From: a bacterium
GTDB lineage: Bacteria > Patescibacteriota > Patescibacteriia > Patescibacteriales > GWC2-42-12
NCBI GenBank assembly: GCA_030655095.1
Contig: JAURWF010000032.1
Span: 1 to 48,776 of the forward strand
Direction: 5' to 3'
DNA length: 48,776 bases
Shown: positions 14,251 through 46,226 of the stretch, in pieces
Position numbering within the stretch: the first letter of the stretch is position 1
Layout: every line of letters begins with the position of its first letter
The notes under the pieces: generated by a model
What the model saw: the letters and a program-made list of their open reading frames with translations, nothing else
What the model was told of the DNA's origin: nothing
Database searches by the model: none
Made by a program: the position numbers and the translations under genes

Positions 14251-14254
14251 AAAA

Positions 14255-14316
14255 CTATTGCAAATTTAATTTGCAATAGTTTTTATGAACAAATAAATTA
14301 TTATTTTATAAACTCT
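14255..14316. terminator. Bidirectional terminator palindrome (copy A of a 61-bp duplication)
   Basis: aaaaa-ctattgcaaatttaatttgcaatag-ttttt. About 90% identical over ~61 bp to 15077-15137. Confidence 0.65.
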
Positions 14317-14331
14317 AAAAATAATTTATTA

Positions 14332-14691: not shown

Positions 14692-14697
14692 AAAAAT

Positions 14698-14946: not shown

Positions 14947-15076
14947 AGAAATAAATTTAATAATAATTATAATTATAATAGCAATAAAAATAAAATTTCG
15001 TCAAATTATGTATCGAATATGGTGTTCGGCGACAGACCCTCAAATATTCAAAAATAAACTCCTAAAACAAAAAAAC

Positions 15077-15137
15077 CATTGCAAATTTAATTTGCAATAG
15101 TTTTAACGAACAAATAAATTACTATTTTATTAAATCT
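15077..15137. terminator. Bidirectional terminator palindrome after clpP (copy B of the duplication)
   Basis: aaaaa-ccattgcaaatttaatttgcaatag-tttt, then aacgaacaaataaattactattttat as in copy A. Confidence 0.65.
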
Positions 15138-15161
15138 ATCGCCAACAACAACAAACTCTTA

Positions 15162-22870: not shown

Positions 22871-22883
22871 TTATATTTTTATA

Positions 22884-22959
22884 CCCGTAGGGGCGGGGAT
22901 TGCCCCCGCCCTATTACCTCTATTATTAAAATTTGGGCACCCGCAAGGGATGCCCCTAC
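22884..22959. repeat. Two GC-rich hairpins (family 4) between tRNA-Lys and tRNA-Met
   Basis: cccgtaggggcgggg-attg-cccccgccctat and gggcaccc-gcaa-gggatgcccctac. Confidence 0.8.
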
Positions 22960-23041: not shown

Positions 23042-23045
23042 GTGA

Positions 23046-23115
23046 CAATTATCAATTACGAATTATCAATTTATAATTTATAATTTATAATTTATAATTC
23101 GTAATTGATAATTGG
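23046..23115. repeat. Perfect 20-bp inverted repeat with a (tttataa)n centre, between tRNA-Met and tRNA-Arg
   Basis: caattatcaattacgaatta (23046-65) / taattcgtaattgataattg (23096-115). Confidence 0.85.
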
Positions 23116-23125
23116 TTTGAAATAG

Positions 23126-23197: not shown

Positions 23198-23347
23198 ATA
23201 TTGGATTTGTCGCCAAATGCCGTATTTTGTATAAAATTTTATTGTAAAATACAAAATTTAATAAAAACCAATAAAACACAGACAAATAAAAATGCTGAGT
23301 TCTTTTTGATAATAGCACCTGATTTAAATTTTATCAAGCCAAAACTA

Positions 23348-23457
23348 TGTCATTGCGAGAAGCCTGTAATCAGGCGACGAAGCAATCTCTGATTAAGAGA
23401 CACTTTTGTAAATTTTACAGGAGATTGCTTCGTCTGATTACAAACCCGCAATAACAG
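23348..23457. repeat. Palindromic element, family 3
   Basis: tgtcattgcgagaagcctgtaatcaggcgacgaagcaatctctgattaagagac ... ggagattgcttcgtctgattacaaacccgcaataacag. Confidence 0.8.
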
Positions 23458-26766: not shown

Positions 26767-26770
26767 AGTA

Positions 26771-26841
26771 ATAGGTGTTAGGTTTTAGGTGTTAGGTTTT
26801 AGGTTTTAGGAAATTTTCTAACAGCTAAAACCTAACACCTG
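26771..26841. repeat. Word-repeat palindrome (aggtgttaggtttt units) between the 224-aa gene and virB4-like gene
   Basis: taggtgttaggttttaggtgttaggttttaggttttaggaaattttctaacagctaaaacctaacacctg. Confidence 0.8.
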
Positions 26842-27975: not shown

Positions 27976-27982
27976 ACATTAA

Positions 27983-28068
27983 GTTAGGTTGTAGCTTTTT
28001 AGGTTGTAGCTTTTTAGGAAATTTCCTAAAAAGCTACAACCTAAAAAACTAAGAAGCTAAGAAGCTAG
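27983..28068. repeat. Word-repeat palindrome (ttaggttgtagcttt units)
   Basis: ttaggttgtagctttttaggttgtagctttttaggaaatttcctaaaaagctacaacctaaaaaactaagaagctaagaagctagct. Confidence 0.8.
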
Positions 28069-29532: not shown

Positions 29533-29544
29533 AAAAAAATTTTA

Positions 29545-29580
29545 TCATTACGAGCTTTGTAATCAAAGCGCGGCAATCTC
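29545..29580. repeat. Half-copy of the family 3 palindromic element
   Basis: tcattacgagctttgtaatcaaagcgcggcaatctc. Only one arm is present. Confidence 0.5.
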
Positions 29581-29689
29581 TTTTTACATATTAGCAAAAA
29601 AATTTTGACAACTCCATAAAATATGTCAAATTTATGGAATGTAAATCCCTAAATTATTGATAATTTAAAGATTAACAATTCTAATAATT

Positions 29690-30067
29690 TTAGCTCTTGG
29701 TCGCCAACTCTGGATTTTCAATTTCAAGTATTCTCTCGTAACCAACTTTAGCCAACCAGCGCTTAAACGGCTCTGCTTTAGGCGATGGAATAGATTGAAT
29801 AAGACGAAACAAGCCTTCGGTATCAGCGCAGTCGGTTTCATAATATTTGCCATCATTAGCTATTAATTTCAGTTGTCTACAGATTGTAGACAACTCAACC
29901 CCATCCTCACTTTTGATTCTCGTTTTCATGGCATTCCAATAAACACGTGGCTTCACGCTATCAGTCAACGCCTCAACTACATCCACAACCGAGAACCACC
30001 ATTCTTTATTAAAAATAGTTTTTCTAATCTTCCTGTTTTTAAATATAGCGATGTGATTGTCTTGCAT
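29690..30067 (-). pseudogene. Bro-N domain protein, apparently C-terminally truncated
   Basis: 125 aa. WWFSVVDVVEALTDS...CRQLKLIANDGKYYETDCADTEGLFRLIQSIPSPKAEPFKRWLAKVGYERILEIENPELA. From memory, homologues continue ~130 aa past the ...PELA point. Confidence 0.6.
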
Positions 30068-31063: not shown

Positions 31064-33436
31064 TTATGTTCTACTAACAACATCATACTCATCAACTCTT
31101 TTATTTTCTTTTAATCTGCCCTTTTCCATCATCTCCGTATTAATTCTATTAAGCGCGTCTATTAAATCCTTATCAACAGATTTACCACCTTTTATTTGCG
31201 CCTGTACTCCTTGCTTTAAATTTATAACCCCTAATTTCTCATTATTAGATAAATTTTTAAATTCTAATGTTTTCAAAACCTTTATCATGTTTCTCATTGA
31301 AGCTTTTGATTTTACTGTCCCATCAGCTAATAAATCAAATAATTTATTTTGACCAGAAGTAGGACCATTTTGTGAATAAAAAGCATTTTTAAAATCACCA
31401 AAATCTAAACCCTCATTAGTAAGACTTTCTCTGCGTTCTTTATTCGCTTTATTTTCTACTGTTCCTTTCTCTATGGCTTTTATTGTAAGCTCGTTTGGTC
31501 CAAGCATTTCTTTTGACATATCCACCATTCCTTTTTGAAAAGAATTTCTTCTTTCTTTTTTTGTTTCTAAGTCGTCATTAGCTGTTTTTACTCTATTATT
31601 AGCTGCGTCCAAACCACGACTAGTAGCATGTCTTTTATAAATAGCATCCTTTTTCTCTTCAAAAAATTCTTCTGCATTTTTCTGTTTATTGTCTTGTTCA
31701 ACGTTAATTGTTTTTACATCAGCTTCGTGACGTTTTCTTTCTACAACAGTGCTAGCAATTCCTAGCTGTGGAAGATTCCCAATTTCTAATTCTCTTCTAA
31801 TTTTAATTTGCTCTAACATATTACTCTTTTGTCTCTCAACTCTTCCTATTTCAGGCTCAGCATCTGTATTTACTTGTTCTTTTGTCTTTTCCCTATCCTC
31901 TTCTGCTGATTTCTTTTCTTTTTCAGCATCTATCACGTCTTTTCCTTTTCCCGCTCTTTCTAAAGCATCGGCTGTAAAACCTTTTTTAGTCTTTATTGCT
32001 TTTGCTATACCGGCCACAACCATGCCAATTGCAAGAGGTGAGCCTCCTCCAAGTGCTCCTGCAGTCACTAGTGTTGCTCCTCTCTTTAGTCCTTTTATAT
32101 TTTTATCTTCAGCTAACTCTTTTAATTTTTCCTGTCCTTCACCTTCTCCTGATCCTAGTCCCATTTTTTCTAATGTTTTTCTTCTTCTGGCTACTTGCTC
32201 ATCTCTTACGCCCCCATGCAAATCTACCCCCCATTGATTAGCAAAGCTACCAGCTTTTTTTATAGACTCAGCGCCACTACCAAGAAATTTGCCAGCGAAT
32301 TTACTGCCACCAAAAGCACCAACTGCTGTGCCCGCTCCTCTCAATGCTAAACTTGCGCCTATTTTTCCTCTTTCAACTAATGCCTCTTTTCCTTTTTTTG
32401 CAACCCACCCTTGTCCTTTCTGAATTGCTGCCATTCCTTTTCCTGCGACTTTGCCTGCTGCTCCGCCGACCTGTTGAGCAATCATTAATCCACCGATTAA
32501 CATACCAATAGAAATAATAAATTTAATCAAATTATCAGTACTCCCTGCCTCTGTTATTCCTGTAGCTAAAGTTACATTACTACCTTTATTAATATTTGCC
32601 ATCAATCCTGCTGTAGATGAAGCAGAAACAAATGACAACCAAATAAAAAAAGCTAAAACTGGACCAACAATTACATTGCTGGTAAAATCTTTCCACCACT
32701 GTTGTGAATATGATTGACCAGCTGGAAAAGCTGCTAATAAATAAGCTAATGGAGATAAAACAATATAAATCCATAACATCACCATTCTCATCACTAACAC
32801 GGCCAGCATAGTCGCAATTACTACTGAAGAAATAAGCACATAAATCAACGCCAATATATAAGAGCCAAGAACAGTAAGAGTATTAACATCCTTTGCATCT
32901 GCGCTAATATTATATATATCCTTAAGCCCCAACATATCTGCCAAATTTCCCCTACCTACTTCTTTAAAACCATTAACAAAAGTAAGCATTATTACTTGCG
33001 CGCAATCTATAATTAACCCACAAATTGTCTTAGAAAAATTTATTAAAATAGCCATTAATAAAAGTTTCGGTAATAACTTTTTAACACTGTAATTCTCCTG
33101 CCTTAATATCGTTGCAAAAGCAATAATTAACAAAATTAAAATAAAAAACATATTGCACAGATCCCTAACAATTTTCCAACCGTTAGAAACCGCTGATGAA
33201 TCTATAAATCCATTATAACTACAAACAAGAATTAGAATATTAATTAAAGCAATCAATATAAGACCAATACCATTAATGATAACTGCGATTAAAGAACCTA
33301 AAATTTTAGCTATTCCAACTCCTATATCGTCGGGGCCAGCAAAAACATAATGTCCAATAAAAAAAGTTCCTGATACTATTAATAATAATATCAATCCAAG
33401 AAAAAAATATTTTTTACTAAAAAAATTAATTTTCAT
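31064..33436 (-). CDS. Polytopic VirB6/TrbL-like membrane protein with Gly-rich segment and long charged coiled-coil C-terminus
   Basis: 790 aa. Signal/TM, then ~7-8 TM helices (GWKIVRDLCNMFFILILLIIAFATIL...LINFSKTICGLIIDCAQVIMLTF). The C-terminal ~400 aa is Lys/Glu-rich. Confidence 0.65.
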   Translation of the reverse strand: MKINFFSKKYFFLGLILLLIVSGTFFIGHYVFAGPDDIGVGIAKILGSLIAVIINGIGLILIALINILILVCSYNGFIDSSAVSNGWKIVRDLCNMFFILILLIIAFATILRQENYSVKKLLPKLLLMAILINFSKTICGLIIDCAQVIMLTFVNGFKEVGRGNLADMLGLKDIYNISADAKDVNTLTVLGSYILALIYVLISSVVIATMLAVLVMRMVMLWIYIVLSPLAYLLAAFPAGQSYSQQWWKDFTSNVIVGPVLAFFIWLSFVSASSTAGLMANINKGSNVTLATGITEAGSTDNLIKFIISIGMLIGGLMIAQQVGGAAGKVAGKGMAAIQKGQGWVAKKGKEALVERGKIGASLALRGAGTAVGAFGGSKFAGKFLGSGAESIKKAGSFANQWGVDLHGGVRDEQVARRRKTLEKMGLGSGEGEGQEKLKELAEDKNIKGLKRGATLVTAGALGGGSPLAIGMVVAGIAKAIKTKKGFTADALERAGKGKDVIDAEKEKKSAEEDREKTKEQVNTDAEPEIGRVERQKSNMLEQIKIRRELEIGNLPQLGIASTVVERKRHEADVKTINVEQDNKQKNAEEFFEEKKDAIYKRHATSRGLDAANNRVKTANDDLETKKERRNSFQKGMVDMSKEMLGPNELTIKAIEKGTVENKANKERRESLTNEGLDFGDFKNAFYSQNGPTSGQNKLFDLLADGTVKSKASMRNMIKVLKTLEFKNLSNNEKLGVINLKQGVQAQIKGGKSVDKDLIDALNRINTEMMEKGRLKENKRVDEYDVVSRT

Positions 33437-33441
33437 TTAAC

Positions 33442-33470
33442 ATATCTTTTAATCATACCTAAAACTTTTT
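33442..33470. repeat. 29-bp direct repeat, copy A (5' end and upstream region of the DUF4143 ATPase gene)
   Basis: atatcttttaatcatacctaaaacttttt. Identical to 35509-35537 and 35549-35577. Confidence 0.9.
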
Positions 33471-33510
33471 TTTACTATCCAATTTAGTAACTGCTCACAA
33501 TCCTAAAAAT

Positions 33511-33605
33511 CTGTTATTGCGAGCCCGAAACTTTGGTAAAAATTCACGAACGTATTTTCTGACCAGCGATTGCTTCGTCGCTGATTACAGCTCCTCGCAA
33601 TGACA
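33511..33605. repeat. Palindromic element, family 3
   Basis: ctgttattgcgagcccgaaac ... gattgcttcgtcgctgattacagctcctcgcaatgacatgg. Confidence 0.75.
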
Positions 33606-33650
33606 TGGCACTGTCGCCGAATACTCTTTTTAATATAAAAAATTCCAAAT

Positions 33651-34211: not shown

Positions 34212-34254
34212 AAATTTTTATTATCCATTCTCTTTATTTATCTTACCATAATTA

Positions 34255-34310
34255 TCTGAACCACTGAAAGTTTCTGAGGGGCTCTGAAAATACTGTCAGT
34301 GATTCATACA
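34255..34310 (-). repeat. Family 1 repeat (inverse copy plus degenerate forward half)
   Basis: tctgaaccactgaaagtttctgaggggctctgaaaatactg, then tcagtgattcataca. Confidence 0.85.
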
Positions 34311-34317
34311 ATTTCAA

Positions 34318-35523
34318 TTACTGCAATCTGCTTAAAAAATCCAAAATATTCATATGCTTAACGCCTTCAACCCCGCCTTCAACCATTTTATCCATTGATA
34401 CCACTAATTTTGGATAATTATCTTTTATTGCTAAAAGATTACCAAACTCTCTTTCTTTAACAGCTTCGCTACTTATAAGATACGCAACTTGAATATAAAG
34501 TTTTTCTCCTTTTTTTTCACACACAAAATCAATTTCTTTTTTACCCAACTGACCAATTGTTACTTTGAACCCAGATACTTTAAGATGCATAAAAACCAAA
34601 TTTTCCAATATTTTATTAATATCAGTCTGTCTGTAGCCAATTATAGAATGTCTAAGTCCTAAATCTTCAAAATAATATTTTTCATTAATTTCAAAAATTT
34701 TTTTACCATTTACATCCGACCTTCTTACTTTAAAAATAAAAAATGACGATGCTAAAAAATGAATATAATTTAAAATTATATTAGGAGCCATTTTAATTTT
34801 TTGTGATTTCAAAAAATCACTAATTTTTTTTGCCGAGACTAAACTGCCTACATTATCAGCTAAATATTCAACAAGCCTTTCTAAAAAATCCAAATTACGA
34901 ATATTATACCGCTTAACCACATCTTTAAATAAAATTGTATTGTAAATATTTTTTAAATAGTCATACACAATTTGATCATTAAGTTCCAGATTTATTAAAT
35001 ATGGCAAACCACCATATTTAATGTATTTAAACAACGCCTCTTCGGTATTTACAAGTTTATGAAAAACTAAAAATTCCGGATATGACAAACTAAAAACCTC
35101 AATTTCAACATATCTACCCGAAAGACATGTCGCCAACTCCGATGACAACATATTAGCATTAGAACCTGTGCAATAAATATCATGTTTACCTCCGGCCGAT
35201 AGATCTCTTAAAGCTTTTTCAAATTTTATTATATCCTGAATTTCATCAATAAAAATATACTTTTTCTTATTACCAGCTAATTTTTTTATATAAATAAGAA
35301 GATCCTTGTAATCTTTAATCATCTCAAACTCATATAGCTCTTTATTAATATAAATTATATCATCTCTTTTAGCGCCCTTTTTTATCAACTCATCCATAAT
35401 TTGAAAAAGCAAATAACTTTTTCCGACTCGCCTTTGCCCAACAATAACTTTAATAACATTTTTATTAAAAAATGGCGCTAGTTTTGCTAAATAGAAATTT
35501 CTTTTAATATATCTTTTAATCAT
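34318..35523 (-). CDS. AAA+ ATPase of the AAA_14/DUF4143 type
   Basis: 401 aa. Walker A GQRRVGKS. Walker B YIFIDEIQ. The C-terminal portion follows the DUF4143 pattern. Confidence 0.8.
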   Translation of the reverse strand: MIKRYIKRNFYLAKLAPFFNKNVIKVIVGQRRVGKSYLLFQIMDELIKKGAKRDDIIYINKELYEFEMIKDYKDLLIYIKKLAGNKKKYIFIDEIQDIIKFEKALRDLSAGGKHDIYCTGSNANMLSSELATCLSGRYVEIEVFSLSYPEFLVFHKLVNTEEALFKYIKYGGLPYLINLELNDQIVYDYLKNIYNTILFKDVVKRYNIRNLDFLERLVEYLADNVGSLVSAKKISDFLKSQKIKMAPNIILNYIHFLASSFFIFKVRRSDVNGKKIFEINEKYYFEDLGLRHSIIGYRQTDINKILENLVFMHLKVSGFKVTIGQLGKKEIDFVCEKKGEKLYIQVAYLISSEAVKEREFGNLLAIKDNYPKLVVSMDKMVEGGVEGVKHMNILDFLSRLQ

Positions 35524-35577
35524 ACCTAAAACTTTTTATTAATTGTTTATATCTTTTAATCATACCTAAAACTTTTT
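35509..35577. repeat. 29-bp direct repeat, copies B (35509-35537, spans the ATPase start codon) and C (35549-35577)
   Basis: atatcttttaatcatacctaaaacttttt twice, 11 bp apart. Confidence 0.9.
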
Positions 35578-35580
35578 TAA

Positions 35581-35629
35581 CTGTCTAAGCTGTCTGAACC
35601 ACTGACAGTTTCTGCGGTTCAGATAACTT
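35581..35629. repeat. Family 1 repeat (hairpin variant); supplies the stop codon of the HEPN gene
   Basis: ctgtctaagctgtctgaaccactgacagtttctgcggttcagataactt. tctgaacc and ggttcaga can pair. Confidence 0.8.
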
Positions 35630-36005
35630 CCTTTTTTATTCCTGCTAATAAATCTTTAAAATGTTTAAGCACGTCGGGTAATTTACTATAAACCTCTTCT
35701 GCTATTTCTTCTTTATAAGTATGAACTGTTTCATTACGCATATCAACAAAATTCATCCAATCATCGCTGTATTTAATAATCCCTTGCTGATAAGCTTCAC
35801 GAAAACATTCTTTAGGCGAGCGACAAATAATCCCATTATTTTCCTCTAAAAATGCCTTAACCATCTTCCATGACAAATCAAGTGTAAACTCAAAACGTTG
35901 AATAGCAGAATCACGAACAATATCAGATTCTGGAACATCTAAAACTTCGGTAAAACGAATTAACGCTTTTTCAAATTGTTTAATAATTGCTTCTAATTTT
36001 TCCAT
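35619..36005 (-). CDS. HEPN-domain protein, HI0074-type nucleotidyltransferase substrate-binding subunit (putative toxin)
   Basis: 128 aa. RDSAIQRFEFTLDLSWKMVKAFL. Rx4H motif RNETVH. Confidence 0.85.
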   Translation of the reverse strand: MEKLEAIIKQFEKALIRFTEVLDVPESDIVRDSAIQRFEFTLDLSWKMVKAFLEENNGIICRSPKECFREAYQQGIIKYSDDWMNFVDMRNETVHTYKEEIAEEVYSKLPDVLKHFKDLLAGIKKEVI

Positions 36006-36010
36006 ATTTT

Positions 36011-36319
36011 TTATAAAATAAATTCTATATTATGTTGCGCGACAGTTTTAAAATCACTAGACACAGTTTTAAAATCAACAACATCAATTTTGTAAAGAAT
36101 CGGTAATTCTTCTATTTCCTCTTTTATCTCGCTCATAATTTTAAGTGAAATTGGCTCTTGCCCTTCTATCCCAATATCAATATCTGATCGCTCGTCTCCT
36201 TTACCTGTAACACGAGAACCAAATAAAAAAACACGATATTTTTTAAGATCAAGATGTTTACCAATAATCTCTAATATCTCTTTTTTTAATTTTTCTGTTG
36301 AATAATGTTTAAGAAACAT
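36011..36319 (-). CDS. Minimal nucleotidyltransferase (MNT, putative antitoxin)
   Basis: 102 aa. LFGSRVTGKGDERSDIDIGI (GS...DxD). Sits 5 nt upstream of the HEPN gene. Confidence 0.85.
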   Translation of the reverse strand: MFLKHYSTEKLKKEILEIIGKHLDLKKYRVFLFGSRVTGKGDERSDIDIGIEGQEPISLKIMSEIKEEIEELPILYKIDVVDFKTVSSDFKTVAQHNIEFIL

Positions 36320-36334
36320 AATCCATATTTATAA

Positions 36335-36522
36335 TTGTATTTGTATTTGTAATTGTATTTGTATTTGTATTTGTAATTTTCAGTATTTTCAGCGCCCCTC
36401 AGAAACTGTCAGTGGTTCAGACAATTGTAATTGTAATTGTAGCTTTCAGTATTTTCAGAGAGCCTTTCAGAAACTGTCAGTGGTTCAGAGAGCCCCTCAG
36501 AAACTTTCAGTGGTTCAGACAA
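36335..36522 (+). repeat. gtattt/gtaatt microsatellites plus three family 1 copies
   Basis: ttttcagtattttcagcgcccctcagaaactgtcagtggttcagacaa (36377-), ctttcagtattttcagagagcctttcagaaactgtcagtggttcagaga (36444-), gcccctcagaaactttcagtggttcagacaaac (36490-). Confidence 0.9.
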
Positions 36523-36523
36523 A

Positions 36524-39500
36524 CTAATAACACCCAATTTCTGTGATAGTGGCAATCGCTGAACATTTCGCACTAGTGTTACAATCTTTACTTCCACCAT
36601 CTCCATCCTTATCCCATCGATGCCGTGCCGTACAAGATTCTTGCTTCTTATTCATAAAATTATGATCAAGCACATTACAACTTACCCAACCGTAACTATT
36701 TCCTCTATCATCACCACCAAAATTGCGAACACCATCTTTACCTAAACATTGATAACCATCCTCTTTCCACTCAGAGCAGTTACTCTCAATCTTACTTCCA
36801 GAGCCCATGCGATGCTCTGCTACTTTTTGTGTCGTGCTCCAATCCCCATACTTATTCCACTCAGTCCTGCCATTGCTATTACAATCCCCCCCAGGCAATC
36901 TACAAAAATAAACTGTTGGATATTCTGTACCGTTTAATGTTGTGCTGTTACCAACTCTGTCTGTAATTATTTCACCAGCATCATTAGTAACCTGCCAACC
37001 AGCATTATCAGCTGGACTAACACCACTAGCATGCGCCCAAACAACACCTCCAGCGTCCGCACATTGTTTTCTTCTATGCTGCACAGCAGTCACTACCGGA
37101 CGCACTAAATTATCTGAACACCCACTCTTATTGAACTCGCATTGTTTATAACTCTCGCTTGTACTACTACTTATATTACTATGATTATTGCAACCTAGGC
37201 TACCATGCAAATAATCAGTATATCCATCATGATTAAATTCAGTTGCCTTCTTCCAACAAGATTGCTGATTCAAAATAGGATTTATCATATCTTTCTCATT
37301 CCAATCACAATGCTCACCATTTGCCGTTTGAACAGCCCCATCTCCACACCAACCATCATCCCAATAACATTTATTGCAGGAATATTGATCAAGCCTATTT
37401 GAGCCAGTACTTATTTTAGTATCTATTCCATTGCACTTATCGCCATTATTAGAGCCACAATCACAGTCTTCTTCACCATTTACTTTTCCGTCGCCACACC
37501 ATTCACTTACACGGCTAGTTTCAGGTGGCGCTGACCACCAAAGTAAACAAACATCTGGATCTCCTGGAGAGCGATCATATTCAAGACAATGACCATACCA
37601 ACCTTTATATCTCATACCAGAATCATCATTATAAGCGCAAGACAATGAATCATTTTTTGGATAAAGCCGACAAGATTGCGGAGTATACCATTTACCATTA
37701 ACGCCATAATTTGTAACGCCATAATTTGCTGATTCTAAAACTGGTCTAATTTTTACATCATCAAAATAATAATCTCCTAAAGCATTGTCGCTAGCTGTTA
37801 AAATAACTTTAATTTTCGTAGTACTTGCTTGAGTTTTAAATGCTTTGCCTCCAATTTTTCCAATCTCAAGCGTCCAAGGTTTTGAAGAATCAACACTTAT
37901 AACAGTTGAGGAGCTAATTAGCTCTTCTGTTGTGCTACTTGCAATAGCAATTAATTTATATTCCTCTATTTTTATTTTTGCTTGTCCTCTGTTCATTCTT
38001 TGAGTATTAACATAAGCAGTAAGTACATACTCTTGATTGTATCTTACTGGAATACTTACGCTACTAGTAAGCGTTGAAACTTTATTATCAGCTGTTAATT
38101 TTACAAAATTCCTACCTTCTGGCGCATAAACATAGCAATCTCCATTATTATCCTTTTTAAAACAAATTTTTTCATCTTGCGATTCTATAGGATCATCAAT
38201 AATTTCACATTGTGCTATCTCGTTTATTTTTTTATACTCATTAATTATTTCTTTAATTATTTCTTTGCATTTTTCCAATACAGTTGTTGATGTGGTTGTT
38301 GATGCCATTAATATCTGACAATTACTATTTTTAAATAAATTTTTCTGCGTTTGCTCATCAGCTTCTTTGCCTTTGTATCCACAATCCCAATTAGTAGGCC
38401 AATCAGGATCTTCTGTGTTGTAAATAACGCTCTCAGTGCCAGAGGCATCTGTAGTAATTGTATTTTTATATAAAACAGATTCAAATTGACCGTTAAGAAC
38501 ACTCGCTGTTAAACCAATAGCGGAAGCTTGTCCTAAAGGATAATAATCATTTGGATAAAAACTTACACTAGAATTAGCCCAACCAACTTTGGCATAACCA
38601 GACATATTACTCATAGCTTCGGCAGTAATAGTGCTGGTGGCTGTCTGGTTTTGTTTTACAGTATTACTAATAAACCGAGAACAACTTCCGCTATCATTAA
38701 ATTTATTACAAACACCCACTTTTTCACACACTCCGCCAGGAACACCCGCTACCTGCGTTATTGTTTCACAAGCTAACCATTTATCACAAACACGATCAGG
38801 AGAAACTTTTAATAATTTATTAGCATTATTATTTACATCTCCCTCCGCAGTCTTACCGCTACCATCATTTTCGGTTATATTAGCATTAAACGTTAAATTA
38901 GATAAACTACTACCATTTTGACTTCTTTCATTAAATAAAACACACCCTTTTTCAAAATCAACCATCCCATTGCAATCACCTGCGTTCATATTCTGCTTTA
39001 AATTATATCCAACAACAGCACGTCTAAGCTCTACATCTGTACCAGTTAGAATACACTGAACACTATCACTAGTGTAAAATTGTTTACTACTAGTCGCAGT
39101 CGCTGAAAGACTATTAACTGCTACTAAATTATTTTTATTTATTAATTCATAAATTACCCCGTTACTATAGTTATCTCTCATAAAATCTCCTGCAGAAGAA
39201 CAATAATAATTAATACAATTATTTCTATTTATTTGACTAGAACAGTTTCTAGTAATACAGGCCTGCAGCGCAACCGTATCAAAAATCGGATTATTTATAT
39301 TGCAGTTTATGCTTCCATTTTTAAAAATATAAACTGTATTTGGCTCAACTTTAACAGTTGCGGTAGCTATATCCATTGAAAATTTACTGATTGGATCAAT
39401 ATATTCTGTACAACCAGCTTCTCTTGCTGGGCAAATTCCTGCCCACATATCTTTAGGTTGAGAAACAGAAGCTCCGCCAGTGCCTAAAGTTTTTAATGTA

Positions 39501-42500
39501 TCTACTGGACAAACAATATCTATTGTTTCTAGACAGCTTACGCCAATAGCACAATCATTATCAGTTAAACAAACCGAATTAGCATTAACACCACCGCAAT
39601 GTTTAACTTTTTTCTTATACCAACCCCAACTGTCAGTAGCTTTTCCAGTTATCTGTCTCCAATCACAAACCATATCACCTGGACTTTTAAAATAGCTATC
39701 ACCATTGCCAGCAGTCCATTTTTGACAACCGATAGCATTTGAAGAACATAAAATCTCATTATACTTATCGGGTTTATTTTTCAAATAAACATTACTATAT
39801 AACAAACTAGTGTCATATTGATAAGGTTTGCCCAAAAGTTGGCAACCTTCATCATCAGCGTTACATTGTTTGCTTTTATCAAAAACAACATATTTTATTT
39901 TATCTTCAAGCACAGTAATTTTGCTAGGATCATTATCGTTAAAAACCTCTTTTTTATAATTATCAGAATTTTTAGTGTCTATCATTAATTCACAACCAAC
40001 AGCAGACTCTGCGCACAAATCACTAAAACTACGCAAATTATGAAGAACATTATCACGATCATTATATGCATCGCAACGCAACATAAATTGTGGCGAAATT
40101 GCACCATTCAAATCTCTATCGCAAATATCAGGAGTTTGCCACGAATCTTTAATTAAATAATAATGATCAACAACTTCAGTTAATCTAATATTATCAATAA
40201 AAAAATTACCATTAGCTTTAATAATTAATTTTTCAGAAATATTTGGCTCATGATCTAAATTTGTCAAATTAATTTTATAAGAATTCCAATTATTATTACT
40301 AGACAATATTGCTGTTGCAAAAGTTGAAGTAGCTAGATTATTAGTTAATTCAGCAGTTAATTGAGTAGCTGATCCTTTTTTAATTTCAAAAGACAAAATA
40401 TAGTCCTGCCCAGCAGAAATAGTCTGTCCGATAACAACGCCTGCACTATAATTTCCGACACTTACTGCAAGCGAATGACCAGGAGTAATCGCTGTTTCTG
40501 AAGATTGCTCAACTGTTGTCCCGCTAATACTCATCCAATCTTGTGTAGGATTTGATAAATCTTCAAAATTATTATTTAAAATAAAACGTATATTATTGCC
40601 CGTACTACCAACATATTCTCTGCAACCATTTTGCGAAGCCGAGCAAATCTTTCCTTGTCCAGGGATTGCCATATAAATACAAGCTGATTGGTCATCATCC
40701 CAAGTTCCTTTTCTCTCGCTACAAGTAGAGCTAGAATCATCGCTTAAAGCAGTTTTGCGATAAGGATGACAATCTTCTGAACAACTAATTGTATTATTAA
40801 CTAAATGATAAGAAATTTGCCCTGCACGATTATAAAATTGCCTGCAATCTGGCTGATAACTAGGATTATTAGATAAATATTTATAACTCGCCTCATTACA
40901 AACAACACTATCATTCTCAGTTACTTCGGGATTTTCCCCAGCCTTTTTTAATTTTACTACTCTTAATTGAAAACCTGATTTATCAGATCCCTCCCAACTA
41001 TAAAATTCGGCACATTGACCTGCATCAGGCTTAATGCATCGTCTTAATGCAGAATAATATTCTTTAGCTTCGGCTCCTTTGCCTAATTCATCTAAATTAG
41101 TAAATTCATCACAACCAATAGCTTCGGCTGAACAAGTTTTTGCTGTTTTTGGTATAAAATAAGAATCACTCAAAGAATCAAAAGAAGATTTGCTTTGAAT
41201 AAAAGTATTATAACCGACACAAACATCTGGACAATAATCTTTTGCTCTTACTTGTGCTGGAATCTTTACATTATCTTTAATAGAAGTATATAATTCACAA
41301 CCAACATCTTCAGCTTTACAATCTGTAACATATTTATCACATTCATTTGGATCATTAATTCCATCACAACTTAGATAACCGGGGGCATATTTTTGATAAA
41401 CAATACCATTTTCTCCATAAGAACTATAAGTTGTAGGATCGCCACGTTCTAATTTAATAGTATCAATAATACAAGAAGCTGAATTAATTTTAATTTTTAT
41501 AGTAGTAGAAGAAGCTGGCAAAATATATGAAGTTTCATATGTTTGCCAATCAGTTCCTGCATTTAATGGAACAACGGTTTGATCAGCTAATTGAAAATTA
41601 TTTCCTACAGCACACTCTTTAGCAGCAAAAGACAAGGAAAAAGACTCGCCAACTAATGCATTAACAGTAATATCTTCTTCTAAATTACCTGATAATAAAT
41701 TACCTGATAATTGCAAAGCCTTAGAGCCATCATATCCATCAGTTGTGCTTGCCATTCCATCCCAAATAGTTCCGGCAAAATCTTCTTCAAAACTAGAGTT
41801 AGTTAATAAATTAACACCTAATCCTGTTTTAAGCCTAATAAATTTATGACAACCCTCATTTGTTTGCTCACAAGTTTGAACATCTTTATCTAAATAAATT
41901 TTATTATTAGTAGAAGTACTTACATTAGTGCTATTGCAAGTAAATTTACTAGTAGAAGCATTATAGCTAGCACAATAAGCAAGACAACCAACATTATCAA
42001 CATTGCATTGTCCGTAATTTAAAGTATTTTCCAAATAAGACACTGTCTCGCCAGCTGATCCGCGAAAAGTTTGGCAAGTATTATATTTTGGCTCGCATGT
42101 TTTTACATCATTCCCAAATCTCCATTCTCTTCTTTCTTCTGTGCAATAACCATATATATCGCATTGTCCATTATTTTTTTCTTTAATACAGGATTGTTCA
42201 TCAGCGCAATATTCATCATTACGGGCGATTGTTAATTGTGAGCTAGCACCATCACCAGAAGTTTCCGCAGAAAGTATTTCATTGCCAGACCCTTCTCGTT
42301 TACAATAATTAAGAGGAGCTTTAAGTACCCAATTTGGATCAACTAATCCTCTGCACCAAGTAGCGTCATATCCTTTAAAATCATCGTCTGACGCAAAACA
42401 AGCAACCATCTTTTCCAAAGTATTATTTCTACCAACATCAGTAAGATCGCCAGAAATATCTTTAGAATGATCTTTAATGTATTGACCAGCAACCTCCCAT

Positions 42501-43945
42501 CCAACAGGCAAAATCCTAAACTTACGAAGAATTATCATTGAACGATAAGGAAAACCTTCAAGATAATTTGGCTCAACTCCTGCGCTAGAAAAACCAAAAA
42601 TTCCATCTTTTTTTAAATACGATCCAAGCGCTTCTCCAACTGTTTTTCTTTCAGTAATAGCAAGACTAAATTTATCATCAATAACACAATTTGTTGGTCC
42701 AGCTTTAGTAGGATCGGGACACATTGTTAATTCAGTCAAAATATTATAATCACCTCGTACAGTAAAATTCGGCTCAATCAACCCAGCCAAACGATCTTTA
42801 GCCCCAGAAACCCCTTCATTATACGGCTGCCCAGCGTAGTCATCTAATCCACCCCAATTACCAGGATACTTTTCCGTAGAAGGGCCTTTATCTTCACTAG
42901 CCTTTCTCATTAACTTATTATACGCAGTTATAGCTAACTGATTTATAAAAACATTTGAAGCATCTACCAAAGCATCTCCAGTAAACTGCCCGAATTTTCC
43001 TGCTTGTATTTGTTCAATTTGTTCCTTTTCTGATTTTGCCTGGCCTGGAACGCCTGTTAATCTACCAGCGATATTTCTAGGATCCAACCAACCACTACCT
43101 TCAACTCTATCTTTCGCTTTTGTGTCTTTTAATAAATCTATATTGTCAGCCATTTTTGTCTGCAAAGAAAGTGCTATTCCTAAATCATTAGATTGAGGAT
43201 TAAACATATCCTGAAATTGAGTTAAAAAATCATTTCCACGCATAGCTTCTTCCCAGTTTTTTGTCATCTTCATAAAAGTACAAGCAGGCTTCTTCATTTC
43301 TGGTCTTACTTGATTTCTTAGTCCTAAACCAATTTTCCATTTAACATTAAAATCTGGTTCACACAAATTAAACTTTTTTCCAAAAATCCCTTCTTTACCC
43401 AATTCTTCAATAAAAGTCCCTGCTGCATTATCAGCAATATTTAAATAATACTCCTCCCAATTTTCTGTTATAAACATTGGCTTTTGCCCCTCTCTTCCTG
43501 AGCCAATATATGTTGCCAAATCAAAAGCCATCTGATTAAGCGCGGTAGAAACAGCTTTAGCTAATGTATTCGATCCTCTTTCTTGTACTGTTTTTATTAA
43601 CTTTTCCCACCGCACTTTCCATTTCTCAGCATTCTGTGCCTTTTTAGCTGCTTTTTCAGCCGCTTTTTTCTCTTCTGGAGAAACTGTTTTAATTACAGGC
43701 ATAATTGCTTGTGCAGTAGCATAAGCTTCATCTGTTCCCAAAGAAACATCGGGAAAACCATCACCATCAGCGTCAGTAAATTCTAATGGCGGAGGAATGT
43801 TTGATCCAGCAGCATTAACGATATTACCTATAACGCTAACACTAAAATTTAAAAATAAAAATATTATAAAAAACAATACACACGAGCTTAAAAAATCTTT
43901 ACTTTTTTTACTTCTCTTTTGTTGAATTTTATTTAGGCTTGACAT
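36524..43945 (-). CDS. Giant (2473-aa) secreted/anchored cysteine-rich multidomain surface protein
   Basis: Uninterrupted 7.4-kb ORF. N-terminal signal anchor CVLFFIIFLFLNFSVSVIGNIVNA. Cys-poor N-domain (aa ~45-560). Nine C-x5-GC-x2-[YFLMW] motifs. Three N-x-x-FE...[FI][IF]D[DNT][IV][KR]L jelly-roll/CBM-like modules. Two CGDG...E(E/H)CD repeats near the C-terminus. Confidence 0.85.
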   Translation of the reverse strand: MSSLNKIQQKRSKKSKDFLSSCVLFFIIFLFLNFSVSVIGNIVNAAGSNIPPPLEFTDADGDGFPDVSLGTDEAYATAQAIMPVIKTVSPEEKKAAEKAAKKAQNAEKWKVRWEKLIKTVQERGSNTLAKAVSTALNQMAFDLATYIGSGREGQKPMFITENWEEYYLNIADNAAGTFIEELGKEGIFGKKFNLCEPDFNVKWKIGLGLRNQVRPEMKKPACTFMKMTKNWEEAMRGNDFLTQFQDMFNPQSNDLGIALSLQTKMADNIDLLKDTKAKDRVEGSGWLDPRNIAGRLTGVPGQAKSEKEQIEQIQAGKFGQFTGDALVDASNVFINQLAITAYNKLMRKASEDKGPSTEKYPGNWGGLDDYAGQPYNEGVSGAKDRLAGLIEPNFTVRGDYNILTELTMCPDPTKAGPTNCVIDDKFSLAITERKTVGEALGSYLKKDGIFGFSSAGVEPNYLEGFPYRSMIILRKFRILPVGWEVAGQYIKDHSKDISGDLTDVGRNNTLEKMVACFASDDDFKGYDATWCRGLVDPNWVLKAPLNYCKREGSGNEILSAETSGDGASSQLTIARNDEYCADEQSCIKEKNNGQCDIYGYCTEERREWRFGNDVKTCEPKYNTCQTFRGSAGETVSYLENTLNYGQCNVDNVGCLAYCASYNASTSKFTCNSTNVSTSTNNKIYLDKDVQTCEQTNEGCHKFIRLKTGLGVNLLTNSSFEEDFAGTIWDGMASTTDGYDGSKALQLSGNLLSGNLEEDITVNALVGESFSLSFAAKECAVGNNFQLADQTVVPLNAGTDWQTYETSYILPASSTTIKIKINSASCIIDTIKLERGDPTTYSSYGENGIVYQKYAPGYLSCDGINDPNECDKYVTDCKAEDVGCELYTSIKDNVKIPAQVRAKDYCPDVCVGYNTFIQSKSSFDSLSDSYFIPKTAKTCSAEAIGCDEFTNLDELGKGAEAKEYYSALRRCIKPDAGQCAEFYSWEGSDKSGFQLRVVKLKKAGENPEVTENDSVVCNEASYKYLSNNPSYQPDCRQFYNRAGQISYHLVNNTISCSEDCHPYRKTALSDDSSSTCSERKGTWDDDQSACIYMAIPGQGKICSASQNGCREYVGSTGNNIRFILNNNFEDLSNPTQDWMSISGTTVEQSSETAITPGHSLAVSVGNYSAGVVIGQTISAGQDYILSFEIKKGSATQLTAELTNNLATSTFATAILSSNNNWNSYKINLTNLDHEPNISEKLIIKANGNFFIDNIRLTEVVDHYYLIKDSWQTPDICDRDLNGAISPQFMLRCDAYNDRDNVLHNLRSFSDLCAESAVGCELMIDTKNSDNYKKEVFNDNDPSKITVLEDKIKYVVFDKSKQCNADDEGCQLLGKPYQYDTSLLYSNVYLKNKPDKYNEILCSSNAIGCQKWTAGNGDSYFKSPGDMVCDWRQITGKATDSWGWYKKKVKHCGGVNANSVCLTDNDCAIGVSCLETIDIVCPVDTLKTLGTGGASVSQPKDMWAGICPAREAGCTEYIDPISKFSMDIATATVKVEPNTVYIFKNGSINCNINNPIFDTVALQACITRNCSSQINRNNCINYYCSSAGDFMRDNYSNGVIYELINKNNLVAVNSLSATATSSKQFYTSDSVQCILTGTDVELRRAVVGYNLKQNMNAGDCNGMVDFEKGCVLFNERSQNGSSLSNLTFNANITENDGSGKTAEGDVNNNANKLLKVSPDRVCDKWLACETITQVAGVPGGVCEKVGVCNKFNDSGSCSRFISNTVKQNQTATSTITAEAMSNMSGYAKVGWANSSVSFYPNDYYPLGQASAIGLTASVLNGQFESVLYKNTITTDASGTESVIYNTEDPDWPTNWDCGYKGKEADEQTQKNLFKNSNCQILMASTTTSTTVLEKCKEIIKEIINEYKKINEIAQCEIIDDPIESQDEKICFKKDNNGDCYVYAPEGRNFVKLTADNKVSTLTSSVSIPVRYNQEYVLTAYVNTQRMNRGQAKIKIEEYKLIAIASSTTEELISSSTVISVDSSKPWTLEIGKIGGKAFKTQASTTKIKVILTASDNALGDYYFDDVKIRPVLESANYGVTNYGVNGKWYTPQSCRLYPKNDSLSCAYNDDSGMRYKGWYGHCLEYDRSPGDPDVCLLWWSAPPETSRVSEWCGDGKVNGEEDCDCGSNNGDKCNGIDTKISTGSNRLDQYSCNKCYWDDGWCGDGAVQTANGEHCDWNEKDMINPILNQQSCWKKATEFNHDGYTDYLHGSLGCNNHSNISSSTSESYKQCEFNKSGCSDNLVRPVVTAVQHRRKQCADAGGVVWAHASGVSPADNAGWQVTNDAGEIITDRVGNSTTLNGTEYPTVYFCRLPGGDCNSNGRTEWNKYGDWSTTQKVAEHRMGSGSKIESNCSEWKEDGYQCLGKDGVRNFGGDDRGNSYGWVSCNVLDHNFMNKKQESCTARHRWDKDGDGGSKDCNTSAKCSAIATITEIGCY

Positions 43946-44017
43946 ATTTATAATAATATAGTAAGATGTTATTTGTAAAATTTATTTTACAATAGTTTAG
44001 TAAGTCGGAGGTGCGTT

Positions 44018-44554
44018 ATGTTTAGATGTTTGTTTGTTTGTATTTGTTTTTGTATTTTCTTGAGCGAAGCTAAGATCGTGTCTGCGGACGACACAATCCT
44101 GGGGGCACTCATCGATCTAGCGATGTGTCCGAAGGAGGAAATACCAAAAATCTTAAACGCGCGGTTTGAGATAGAAGAGATTTTACAGGGAAAAAAAATC
44201 CCTTGTAAAAAAGTAACTCTACAGAAAGAAAGGCTGCAAATTGTCGTTGGGCAAAATGAGTTCTGTTTTTACTGGGGAGAAAAGAATCCCAAAAAAAACA
44301 GCGTTTTTTTGCTAAGAATCAACAACAGCCCGACAAGATGCATTTGGGGGGAAGACGAAAAGGACTGGAATGATTACAAACTTTTCTTGAAGATGGATAA
44401 CGAGCAAAAAGAGGTTTTTCTTCGTGCATATTTCGAGAAATATGCAAAGATCAAAATTCCTTATCCAAACCCAGCACCTCCTTGTCCATGGACAGTACCA
44501 GCCACTACAACGACGACCAGCACATCTGGTCAACCAGCGATCCACGGCCAATAA
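44018..44554 (+). CDS. Hypothetical secreted protein (GC-richer, SD-bearing)
   Basis: 178 aa. SD GGAGGT 6 nt before the ATG. Signal peptide MFRCLFVCICFCIFLSEAKIVSA. Thr/Pro-rich tail. Confidence 0.65.
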   Translation: MFRCLFVCICFCIFLSEAKIVSADDTILGALIDLAMCPKEEIPKILNARFEIEEILQGKKIPCKKVTLQKERLQIVVGQNEFCFYWGEKNPKKNSVFLLRINNSPTRCIWGEDEKDWNDYKLFLKMDNEQKEVFLRAYFEKYAKIKIPYPNPAPPCPWTVPATTTTTSTSGQPAIHGQ

Positions 44555-44593
44555 AAGGCCTGGATTGCAAAAAAAAATTTAAAAAGTGCATGT

Positions 44594-44629
44594 AAGCCCC
44601 CTCTGTTACATTGGGGGCTTCTTTTTTTT
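44594..44629 (+). terminator. Canonical rho-independent terminator
   Basis: aagccccc-tctgttacatt-gggggctt followed by cttttttttg. Confidence 0.8.
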
Positions 44630-44725
44630 GTCTGAACCACTGAAAGTTTCTGAAAAGCTCTGAAAATACTGAAAATTGCAAATACAATTATCTGAACCAC
44701 TGAAAGTTTCAGTGACTCAGATAAT
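44630..44725 (-). repeat. Two family 1 copies (inverse orientation; the second is a palindromic variant)
   Basis: gtctgaaccactgaaagtttctgaaaagctctgaaaatactgaaaa ... tatctgaaccactgaaagtttcagtgactcagataat. Confidence 0.85.
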
Positions 44726-45259
44726 CTAATTACACTTAAATCCAATTTCCTCTTTTTCTTTATAATCTTTTTTATCATCAACTAATCTATCAATAATATT
44801 CATAATCTCACTTATTCTTATATCAAACTTTTTTTCTATCTCCGCTATTTTCATCGCCAACCCTTCGTATGTTGAAACAAACTTTCTAATATTCACAAAA
44901 GTTCTCATTATCGCAATATTAATATCAATAGCTCTTTTACTCTTTAACACCGATGACAACATAGCTACACCCTGTTCAGTAAAAACATAAGGGCAACTTG
45001 ATGAATGTTTTAATATTGCAAACCGGTCACAATTTGTGACCAGTACATTAGTTTCAATTTTATTTAACCGAAACATAAAATCATCAGGAAATCTTTCAAT
45101 ATTTCTTTTTACTGCTTGATTTAAAACCTTAGTCTCAACTCCATAAAGCACTGCCAAATCACGATCAATCATTACTTTTTGTCCACGAATATATAAAATC
45201 TTATTTTCAATAATATCAACTGAAATCAAATTTTTTACTACTTCTATTTTTTTACTCAT
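44726..45259 (-). CDS. ORF6N (KilA-N-related) DNA-binding domain protein
   Basis: 177 aa. IRGQKVMIDRDLAVLYGVETKVLNQAVKRNIERFPDDFMFRL...PYVFTEQGVAMLSSVLKSKRAI. Confidence 0.85.
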   Translation of the reverse strand: MSKKIEVVKNLISVDIIENKILYIRGQKVMIDRDLAVLYGVETKVLNQAVKRNIERFPDDFMFRLNKIETNVLVTNCDRFAILKHSSSCPYVFTEQGVAMLSSVLKSKRAIDINIAIMRTFVNIRKFVSTYEGLAMKIAEIEKKFDIRISEIMNIIDRLVDDKKDYKEKEEIGFKCN

Positions 45260-45405
45260 TTTTTTGATTTTACTAACTTATTTATTATTTCAAATATCTT
45301 AACAATACTTTTATCATACTTTTTCTCCATTTGCATTATTTTTTTTGCTAATTTATCATATAACCTCTTATTTTCAATTTTCTCTAAAAGAATTATATTT
45401 TGCAT
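45256..45405 (-). pseudogene. 49-aa ORF resembling the C-terminal helix of an ORF6N protein (remnant or small paralogue)
   Basis: LAKKIMQMEKKYDKSIVKIFEIINKLVKSKK compared with LAMKIAEIEKKFDIRISEIMNIIDRLVDDKK in the neighbour. ATGA stop/start overlap at 45256-45259. The track N-terminus (to 45468) is translated repeat DNA. Confidence 0.45.
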
Positions 45406-45445
45406 ATTTTTTAATTTAAGATTATATTTGAAATTATATTTGTAA

Positions 45446-45523
45446 TTTTCAGTATTTTCAGAGCCCATCAGAAACTATCAGTGGTTCAGACAACTTTTCA
45501 GAAACTTTCAGTGGTTCAGACAA
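45446..45523 (+). repeat. Two family 1 copies (forward)
   Basis: ttttcagtattttcagagcccatcagaaactatcagtggttcagacaactt, then ttcagaaactttcagtggttcagacaac. Confidence 0.9.
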
Positions 45524-46162: not shown

Positions 46163-46171
46163 AATAACTAA

Positions 46172-46212
46172 TAACCTAAAAAGCTAAAAACCTAAAAAGC
46201 TAACAAGCTAAC
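46172..46212. repeat. Word repeat (cctaaaaagcta units)
   Basis: taacctaaaaagctaaaaacctaaaaagctaacaagctaac. The same words occur at 7682-7755 and 27983-28068. Confidence 0.75.
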
Positions 46213-46226
46213 TATACCACTTTTCA

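Follow-up and report, generated by a model that had tools for sequence, protein, structure and literature searches.

We have analyzed a dispersed repeat in a contig of 48,776 nucleotides (nt) from a member of the Patescibacteria (JAURWF010000032.1, assembly GCA_030655095.1; the whole stretch is called the window here). In our best reading, to which we give a probability of about 0.5, the copies are relics or non-autonomous forms of the arms of a palindromic element that is specific to this lineage, is associated with a PDDEXK_3 nuclease gene, leaves no target-site duplication and marks the junctions of a defence-type island. Such an element resembles a miniature inverted-repeat transposable element (MITE) or a REPIN, a hairpin-forming doublet of repetitive extragenic palindromic (REP) sequences, and would be limited to one sub-clade of the phylum. 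Its complete form would be the one found in relatives, two inverted arms around a small GxxExxY/PDDEXK_3 nuclease gene. The window would hold derivatives only: solo arms with amplified tandem cores, two-terminus palindromes of 37-59 nt, and paired arms that have come to enclose other insertions (ORF6N, MNT/HEPN and a DUF4143 ATPase).

The 19-nt core of the repeat, AAACTNTCAGTGGTTCAGA, is found 11 times without mismatch, at six loci and on both strands, against 0.05 expected from shuffled sequence (5664+, 5694+, 34255-, 35593-, 36403+, 36471+, 36501+, 44631-, 44691-, 45472+ and 45502+), so the dispersed repeat put forward in the original prediction is real. Two inverted partner half-sites with 3 mismatches to the core are located at 34290+ and 44703+, and a third partner, at 35611-35623, is partial only. 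An 18-mer made of the head plus the core gave 7 matches versus 0.01 expected, and CTGAACCACTGA is the most frequent 12-mer of the window. Longer inverted pairs were found between 44628-44689 and 45432-45493 (62 nt, 90% identity) and between 34250-34321 and 36355-36426 (72 nt, 82% identity). The repeat had been said to match no named family, and we have found no Rfam match at gathering score for any of the loci, with chance-level matches only (E up to 1). Searches of the genome, viral and metagenome contig collections with the exact 19-nt core gave 28, 0 and 33 single matches, respectively, all of them chance or coding matches with unrelated flanks. Besides, literature searches on GxxExxY, on Patescibacteria and MITE, and on the candidate phyla radiation (CPR) and REP returned nothing relevant, and no such repeat has been described there for the phylum.

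Read from the terminus inwards, an arm consists of an outer terminus TTRTCTGAAYCACTGA (the termini are also written as TTGTCTGAACC), five CTGA motifs and a TACAAA/TACAAT repeat with a TATAAT-like hexamer at its end. The CTGA motifs start at offsets of about 0, 8, 18, 28 and 37 nt, that is roughly one per helical turn. Their spacing of 8-10-9/10-9/10 is kept in the arms of the window and in those of the types found in two relatives, L066 and L071; the bases between the motifs diverge. An inward-directed CTGAAA-17-TACAAT/TATAAT is also present in all of the long arms. The GTATTT/GTAATT microsatellite that had been noted in front of most copies does precede the long form (5588-5637, 36326-36376, 36423-36444, 45420-45445 and, in a short version, 44676-44688), and it is part of the arm, namely its inner repeat. 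Copies are either whole genes apart or abut each other at periods of 30 and 68 nt.

Two classes of copies could be distinguished by folding. The first comprises direct arms with tandem cores (5638-5719, 36377-36522 and 45446-45523), which have no secondary structure on either strand (z between -0.2 and +1.9). Since they are unstructured on both strands, the direct arms seem to be read as sequence and not as a fold, and the conserved CTGA spacing together with the lack of structure suggests a phased array that is probably a protein-binding platform. The second class is formed by inverted doublets (34252-34311, 35590-35631 and 44689-44725). A single arm does not fold; the doublets form strong REPIN-like hairpins, with z values from -5.1 to -6.0 on the gene-sense strand, and the self-complementary variants that had been pointed out are real. 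These palindromes measure 37-59 nt, with arms of 17-20 nt and centres of either 1-3 nt or 15-20 nt; they end in TCAGAYAA / TTRTCTGA and do not contain GTTRRRY. In five out of five hairpins (three from the window and two from relatives) the gene-sense strand was the more stable one, by 3.4-7.2 kcal/mol, which is the pattern expected from selection on the transcript.

At the first locus, an AT-rich inner repeat of (G/A)TATTTT units, which read TACAAA/ATACAAA from the terminus, covers 5588-5637 (+ strand) and continues into a solo arm at 5638-5719 (+), with two tandem cores at 5664-5682 and 5694-5712 (nhmmer E 3.5e-16; z +0.7/+0.9). This solo arm is placed between tRNA-Thr (3' end at 5720) and tRNA-Tyr, and the minus-strand sequence at 5582-5596, ATTATAATTGATTAT, resembles codons 2-6 of the PDDEXK_3 gene of the relatives, a likeness that is suggestive only. 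At 34252-34311 (-), a long arm (34252-34299) and an inverted degenerate terminus (34290-34311) form a 59-nt hairpin of -22.8 kcal/mol on the gene-sense strand (z -5.6) versus -15.6 on the other, and the stop of the DUF4143 gene is at 34318. The 42-nt inverted doublet TGTCTGAACCACTGACAGTTTCTG / CGGTTCAGATAA at 35590-35631 (-; -20.2 kcal/mol on the sense strand, z -5.1) includes the TGA stop codon of the HEPN gene (35619-35621). A compound arm at 36326-36522 (+) starts with an inner repeat (36326-36376), followed by an arm (36377-36425), (GTAATT)3 at 36423-36444 and a two-core arm (36445-36522); it is unstructured (z -0.2/+1.0), and the stop of a giant gene is at 36524. The long arm at 44628-44688 (-; E 2.5e-16) begins at the T-run of the terminator hairpin of orf178 (44594-44627) and has its inner repeat at 44676-44688. 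Next to it, a 37-nt minimal palindrome of two joined termini, TTATCTGAACCACTGAAAG / TTTCAGTGACTCAGATAA, occupies 44689-44725 (sense-strand energy -21.2 kcal/mol, z -6.0); the stop codon of ORF6N, at 44726, is 1 nt away. The last locus, 45420-45523 (+), consists of an inner repeat (45420-45445) and an arm with two tandem cores (45446-45523; z +1.6/+1.9) whose terminus directly adjoins the stop of a TSP3-repeat gene (45524).

All copies are intergenic and clustered, and about 37 kb of the window is free of them. Their termini are found at gene 3' ends: the distances are 4 nt for tRNA-Thr, 1 for the giant gene, 0 for the TSP3 gene, 1 for ORF6N and 6 for DUF4143, with the HEPN stop codon inside the repeat itself. 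The same holds for the 8 arm sites checked in relatives, where the termini are 0-6 nt past a gene 3' end or overlap it. On the plus strand, the copies at the 34-45 kb loci have orientations (-,-,+++,-,-,++), that is alternating inverted brackets. Of the 10 intergenic gaps beside accessory genes, 5 hold an arm, versus 1 of the 29 other gaps (hypergeometric p about 0.002, for gap classes that were set after the data had been seen and for copies that are clustered).

The bracketed genes are of defence type. The DUF4143 gene (34318-35523, -), which also has an AAA_14 domain, matches the PADLOC candidate defence family PDC-S01 (E 1.9e-148) and is not found in the L071 or L081 backbones. The MNT/HEPN pair (35619-36319, -; MNT 36011-36319, HEPN 35619-36005) is a type VII toxin-antitoxin-like pair in which MNT matches PDC-S09. 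The ORF6N-domain gene (44726-45259, -) matches PDC-S05 (E 4.6e-61), a family of which one representative has been reported to protect against phage (preprint 10.1101/2024.09.26.614923). This full ORF6N is 75% identical to the L071 type and only 62% to the L066 type; just upstream, at 45281-45361 (-), there is a C-terminal remnant of a second ORF6N of the L066 type (92.6% identity to its residues 145-171).

The original prediction had the repeat bracketing every accessory cassette, and this was too broad. A DUF5615/DUF433 pair (14332-14946) and a Bro-N gene (29690-30067) have no repeat beside them, and the locus at 5638-5719 is not accessory at all, being placed between two tRNA genes and upstream of rpmG in a core operon (rpmG, for ribosomal protein L33, is at ~5308-5450 on the minus strand, just downstream of tRNA-Tyr; the mechanical ORF call, 5308-5589, runs too far, into the tRNA). 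As for the proposed boundaries, DUF4143, MNT/HEPN and ORF6N are indeed bracketed insertions, but the giant gene and the open reading frame (ORF) at 44018, which had been taken as one more cassette, are outside the inverted brackets. With 268 homologues, a fixed position and conserved synteny, the giant gene is a core gene rather than a cassette. The 44018 ORF, its divergently transcribed partner, is present in most relatives (not in L068 or L081) and is no cassette either. The idea of a cassette array survives insofar as the repeats do mark module junctions in a region that varies among relatives; the arms are arranged as inverted pairs whose termini face outward, unlike the co-oriented sites of an attC array.

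We have compared the region with about a dozen fragmentary contigs of relatives (labelled L062 to L081), which share the synteny dCache-KsgA-TSP3-...-giant-.... The window-type core was not found in them with up to 4 mismatches, and the arm family was recovered by a shorter terminal motif and an nhmmer profile. In these relatives, arms were found only around the giant gene. An arm directly past the giant-gene stop is present in L063, L066, L069, L068 and L071, and L068 has in addition arms upstream and downstream of DUF4143, in the same positions as in the window. Three window loci (the 3' end of the giant gene and the two sides of DUF4143) are thus positionally conserved with L068, and for that reason these arms are old and not recently mobile.

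Gene content at these sites is variable, as the original prediction had anticipated for related strains. The more distant L081 has the bare backbone KsgA-TSP3-giant-orf213-orf897, with neither accessory genes nor arms there, and hence the ORF6N, orf178, MNT/HEPN and DUF4143 genes of the window are insertions, for which TSP3|giant and giant|orf186 are the two hotspots. Among the closer relatives, L063 and L075 have neither ORF6N nor PDDEXK_3, L066-type genomes have both, L068 has its ORF6N past the giant gene and contains two additional genes, orf92 and orf142, and L071 has only PDDEXK_3 after the giant gene. These differences in ORF6N, PDDEXK_3, orf92 and orf142 are always located beside arms. 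Contigs L063-L065, L075 and L077 derive from Hainich groundwater, and L075 and L077 are two haplotypes from one sample. Their 100% identity extends over 1616 nt and ends 3 nt beyond the stop codon of TSP3, and from there on they are entirely different; the arrangement dORF6N-arm-PDDEXK_3-arm is present in L077 only, that is, as a presence/absence polymorphism within one population. Between L065 and L066 the module is 97-99% identical and the flanks 91%, which speaks for exchange of the module, and one deletion endpoint in L065 falls exactly at the arm terminus AATTGTCTGAACC. In the window and in these relatives the copies are not randomly spread, and the gene content beside them has been rearranged. 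We have also observed that close homologues of ORF6N are mostly on contigs of <2 kb and that the contigs of several relatives stop right after TSP3 (L076, L080), consistent with assembly breaks at a variable, repeat-bounded region.

The complete unit was found in L062, L065, L066, L067 and L077. In all five, two inverted arms (2210-2275 and 2693-2761 in L066) surround a gene for a 127-amino-acid GxxExxY/PDDEXK_3 protein (TIGR04256, E 1.5e-38) whose ATG comes immediately past the inner repeat, and the unit sits between ORF6N and a small ORF upstream of the giant gene. L071 carries a homologous unit at a different place, right after the giant gene, with 82% identity in both DNA and protein. A unit of the same architecture and a different motif is present in L081, where another PDDEXK_3 gene, now a pseudogene (Pfam E 4.9e-27 when read through), has inverted arms on its two sides that are built of phased ACAAAT. 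This ACAAAT family is also represented in L081 by an empty palindrome, 5 nt past the AdoHcyase stop, and ACAAAT is also a motif of the inner repeat of the arms described here. The window itself gave no significant match to a PDDEXK_3 gene or to a protein-level PDDEXK_3 or GIY-YIG remnant. It does contain, at 36315-36326 (-), overlapping the MNT start codon, the sequence ATGGATTATGTT, the same as the first 12 nt of the PDDEXK_3 gene of the relatives. This is the only exact window copy of that gene start and it adjoins an arm precisely where the cargo would begin; we read it as a putative remnant of a former PDDEXK_3 cargo.

From these observations a mechanism can be proposed. The phased CTGA array would serve as the binding platform of a trans-acting protein, for which the PDDEXK_3 nuclease is the first candidate. 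Arms would act as recombination-active ends or junctions where modules come, go and get replaced, a role that is partly shown by the polymorphism and by the deletion endpoint. The inward CTGAAA-17-TACAAT motif with the inner repeat may be the promoter of the cargo, and a second role, as RNA 3' stem-loops, is probable for the hairpin forms.

Several points weigh against the nuclease-associated element. No target-site duplication was found at any window copy (flanks of 34252-34311, 35590-35631, 44689-44725 and 44628...45523), a possible TTAAA duplication being present in L066 only, and Pfam scans of ~45 ORFs, which are all the plausible genes of the 48.8 kb, revealed no transposase, recombinase, integrase or PDDEXK_3 in the window. 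Since the two PDDEXK_3 loci are both next to the giant gene, they may reflect local rearrangement and not transposition, and PDDEXK_3 could be just one more cargo. The segment that is polymorphic between L075 and L077 exceeds the arm-flanked unit, and no arm is present at its left breakpoint, 3 nt past the TSP3 stop. The three old arms shared with L068 could have been kept by selection for a function in cis and not by mobility. Tandem amplification of the core is atypical of MITEs, and the comparison covers about 10 fragmentary relatives.

The main rival is that the repeats are purely cis-acting, non-mobile expression signals, an explanation that we regard as unlikely. The stem-loop or sequence signal after the stop would stabilise, terminate or process the transcript, the inner TACAAT/TATAAT repeat would promote the next gene, and copies would have spread solely as by-products of the duplication of flanks when genes are inserted. 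The position of the termini, 0-6 nt after stops or the tRNA 3' end or overlapping them at the six window loci and 8 sites of relatives, is what such signals would show, and so are the constant sense-strand bias of the hairpins, the inward promoter-like motif in every long arm and the conservation of the giant-gene 3' site across the sub-clade. Hairpins of oligo repeats fill many other intergenic regions of this genome, and other insertions have duplicated flanks (window 14250/15071, L074, L071). Yet half of the loci are direct arms without any structure, the hairpins have no U-tract, on which ground an intrinsic terminator was also rejected, and a terminator has no need of five phased CTGA motifs. 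Two of the five inward promoter-like motifs are antisense, directed toward gene 3' ends. Flank duplication yields direct repeats and the brackets seen are inverted, and cis-acting signals give no account of a module that is more similar across lineages than its flanks.

Improbable, in our view, is a second alternative, that the repeats are sites of a site-specific recombinase encoded elsewhere, integron-like or of the Xer/pdif type, which inserts and excises modules. The inverted sites that bracket modules and abut stop codons, the missing target duplications and the variable gene content would all fit. So would the cargo, given that pdif modules and sedentary integrons carry defence and toxin-antitoxin genes. 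As in integrons, small accessory or defence genes are found between sites that abut stops, some of them imperfect palindromes, and as in the pdif modules of Acinetobacter plasmids, accessory or toxin-antitoxin modules in varied contexts are enclosed by short inverted sites. An attC array of the integron type can be rejected, since the Pfam scans detected no IntI or other integrase or recombinase in the window, R'/R'' cores (GTTRRRY/RYYYAAC) are missing by inspection and the palindromes measure 37-59 nt against the 57-141 bp of attC sites. In addition, orientations are inverted and not uniform as they are among cassettes, genes within the brackets do not lack promoters, the giant gene found between sites is a core gene, and several sites are old and positionally conserved. 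For pdif/Xer, the palindromes are not 28-bp XerC/XerD sites of 11-6-11 layout and no dif-like sequence was seen by inspection; the context here is chromosomal, and each arm is long and contains several motifs. A recombinase of this kind would leave the solo arms and tandem cores unexplained, and the left-side breakpoints of the polymorphism are away from the arms. We have also discarded a CRISPR array, with copies that are split by whole genes or abut at the 30-nt and 68-nt periods, in both orientations, and classical nesting of transposons, for which the doublet at 35590-35631 would need two units to overlap by 37 nt.

REP or REPIN elements mobilised by a REP-associated tyrosine transposase (RAYT, a Y1 transposase) are a very improbable identity for the repeats, in spite of several similarities. 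REP sequences, their mosaic clusters (bacterial interspersed mosaic elements) and the REPIN-RAYT systems of Proteobacteria are likewise species-specific extragenic repeats located immediately past stop codons, occurring as singles, inverted hairpin doublets and mosaic clusters, with hairpins that act on the transcribed strand. In REPIN-RAYT the enzyme gene can stand between inverted copies, as PDDEXK_3 does here in place of the RAYT, and L071 has a RAYT-like Y1_Tnp gene with a weak REP_Tyr_transpos match (32 bits versus a cut-off of 80). However, REP units are short imperfect palindromes of 20-40 nt that occur in hundreds of copies over the genome, and the unit here is a non-palindromic arm of 45-55 nt with 10-nt-phased CTGA and an AT-rich repeat, concentrated in one island as far as the data go. 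No Y1_Tnp is present in the window, and the one in L071 (7145-7864) is not close to any arm and contains hairpins of a different family (AGAAGCTAAGCT...), so that neither sequence contains a Y1_Tnp flanked by the repeats. DNA uptake sequences (DUS/USS-like) for a competence machinery deserve hardly any credence: DUS do form inverted pairs after genes, the repeat supplies the most over-represented 12-mer of the window and presumably has GTCTGAA in common with the Neisseria DUS, and a ComF-like gene is present, but there are no copies in coding sequence and none in about 37 kb of the window or in most of the DNA of the relatives, those that exist are clustered in one island, and the tandem arrays and long modular arms are unlike DUS.

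The nuclease-associated palindromic element that we favour can also be set beside MITEs such as Correia/NEMIS of Neisseria and RUP of pneumococcus. Like these it is short and non-coding and has terminal inverted repeats (in the window, 62-72 nt at 82-90% identity); it comes in size classes with and without cargo, and its intergenic location is by genes to which it can supply promoters or hairpins. Unlike them, it shows no target-site duplication and no related DDE transposase, its terminal core is tandemly amplified and arms often occur alone. A modular build (head, variable internal modules, tail) and an intergenic position are also features of the BOX elements of Streptococcus pneumoniae, which are probably unrelated in sequence to the arms and are not known to flank a dedicated nuclease gene.

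A wider proposition can be offered as speculation, namely that GxxExxY (PF13366/TIGR04256) PD-(D/E)XK nucleases are the mobilising or homing enzymes of an undescribed class of palindromic elements without target-site duplication. These would have arms of phased motifs (CTGA here, ACAAAT in L081), would parallel the RAYT/REPIN pairs and would decay to solo arms and mini-palindromes that seed defence-gene hotspots in the reduced genomes of the CPR. CPR/Patescibacteria are uncultured, with small genomes that are thought to be poor in mobile elements, and the turnover of their accessory and defence genes is largely unexplained. The repeat family provides a sequence-defined marker of a variable island next to the giant gene, which is conserved and codes for a surface protein. 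Should the arms prove to be the functional ends of a GxxExxY-nuclease element, a very widespread family of small proteins would gain a role and a new partnership of enzyme and repeat, like that of RAYT and REPIN, would be added. On the more ordinary interpretation as REP-like 3' hairpins and promoters, these would still be species-specific intergenic elements in a phylum for which the literature search returned no comparable repeat.

The window has a G+C content of 31%. Named homologues of its KsgA all belong to Patescibacteria, with ~62-66% identity to "Candidatus Falkowbacteria", and its closest relatives reach only 80-81%. Housekeeping genes are abundant (fba, tpiA, der, pth, clpP, ppdK, rpsF, ssb, efp and ksgA), together with five tRNAs, a type-IV-secretion-like cluster (VirB4/TraG, PrgI) and the ComF-like gene. 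Between the giant gene and the small secreted-protein ORF at 44018-44554, the divergent starts are separated by a spacer of 72 nt (43946-44017) in which a palindrome, TTGTAAAATAAATTTTACAA, is located at 43973-43992 and conserved in L063, L066 and L067. The ORF itself is fast-evolving, with 52% identity to the L066 homologue and 22-26% to others.

The repeat family described here is the longest and most copied among the many repeat-rich spacers of this genome. The spacers at 7671-7756, 26767-26841, 27976-28068, 23042-23124 and 46163-46226 consist nearly entirely of long imperfect hairpins of short oligo repeats (TAGCTTTTTAGCTTGTAGC..., AGGTGTTAGGTTTTAGG..., CAATTATCAATTACGAATT...), which appears to be the general style of gene 3' regions in this genome. 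Octamer arrays of TAAAGTCT/GTAAAGTCC at 6743-6797 and 11801-11897, inverted and about 5 kb apart (35 nt, 91% complementary), bracket fba-tpiA-lytR-der. A gene-free gap of 666 nt (11838-12503) contains four 29-nt tandem repeats (12269-12413, GATTACGAGGTTCGAGATGACAAAAGGGA) inside 61-nt inverted arms (11892-11952 and 12364-12424), and similar ...GGAATGACAAAG... repeats were found beside small GIY-YIG nuclease genes in L067 (1971-2671), L068 (10880-11000) and L070 (10683-11096). Over the 1.28 kb at 13056-14331 no convincing gene was found; GC-rich palindromes AGGGCGGGGGCAAGCCCCGCCCCT, at 13987-14037 and 14199-14249, gave no Rfam match and the palindrome recurs between tRNA-Lys and tRNA-Met (22871-22912).

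Direct repeats of 68 nt (14250-14317 and 15071-15138, 91% identical, with a terminator-like palindrome within) surround the DUF5615 (PIN-like)/DUF433 toxin-antitoxin pair, which looks like an insertion with flank duplication. Comparable duplications flank an NYN gene in L074 (2890 / 3700) and ORF6N in L071 (9968 / 10520). A 47-nt module with an AT-rich leader, AGG and ATG plus first codons (MIKRY...) occurs three times, as two tandem copies at the start of the DUF4143 gene (35495-35541 and 35535-35581) and as one just upstream of orf790 (33428-33474), where it reads as a short dead ORF. A second repeat family, (G)GTCTGTCGCCGAATAC plus a small hairpin beside gene ends, was found in the window (15023-15045, 23198-23225 and 33613-33650) and in L063 (140, 3643, 4465, 7007-7061 and 16472). 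A third dispersed family, ...ATTGCGAG...CGAAGCAATCTC..., forms inverted pairs in the long spacers at 12130-12162, 23352-23432, 33516-33601 and about 29540-29590, and is present in L070 as well. Finally, the RAYT-like Y1_Tnp gene of L071 contains the perfect hairpin AGAAGCTAAGCTACTACAAAAA(N5)TTTTTGTAGTAGCTTAGCTTCT, which recurs after ORF6N (10548-10592), and a related hairpin, AGAAGCTTAGCTTCC...GGAAGCTAAGCTTCT, is located after the PAP2 gene of the window (5254-5291). Hairpins of this type may belong to a separate REP/RAYT-type system in the clade.

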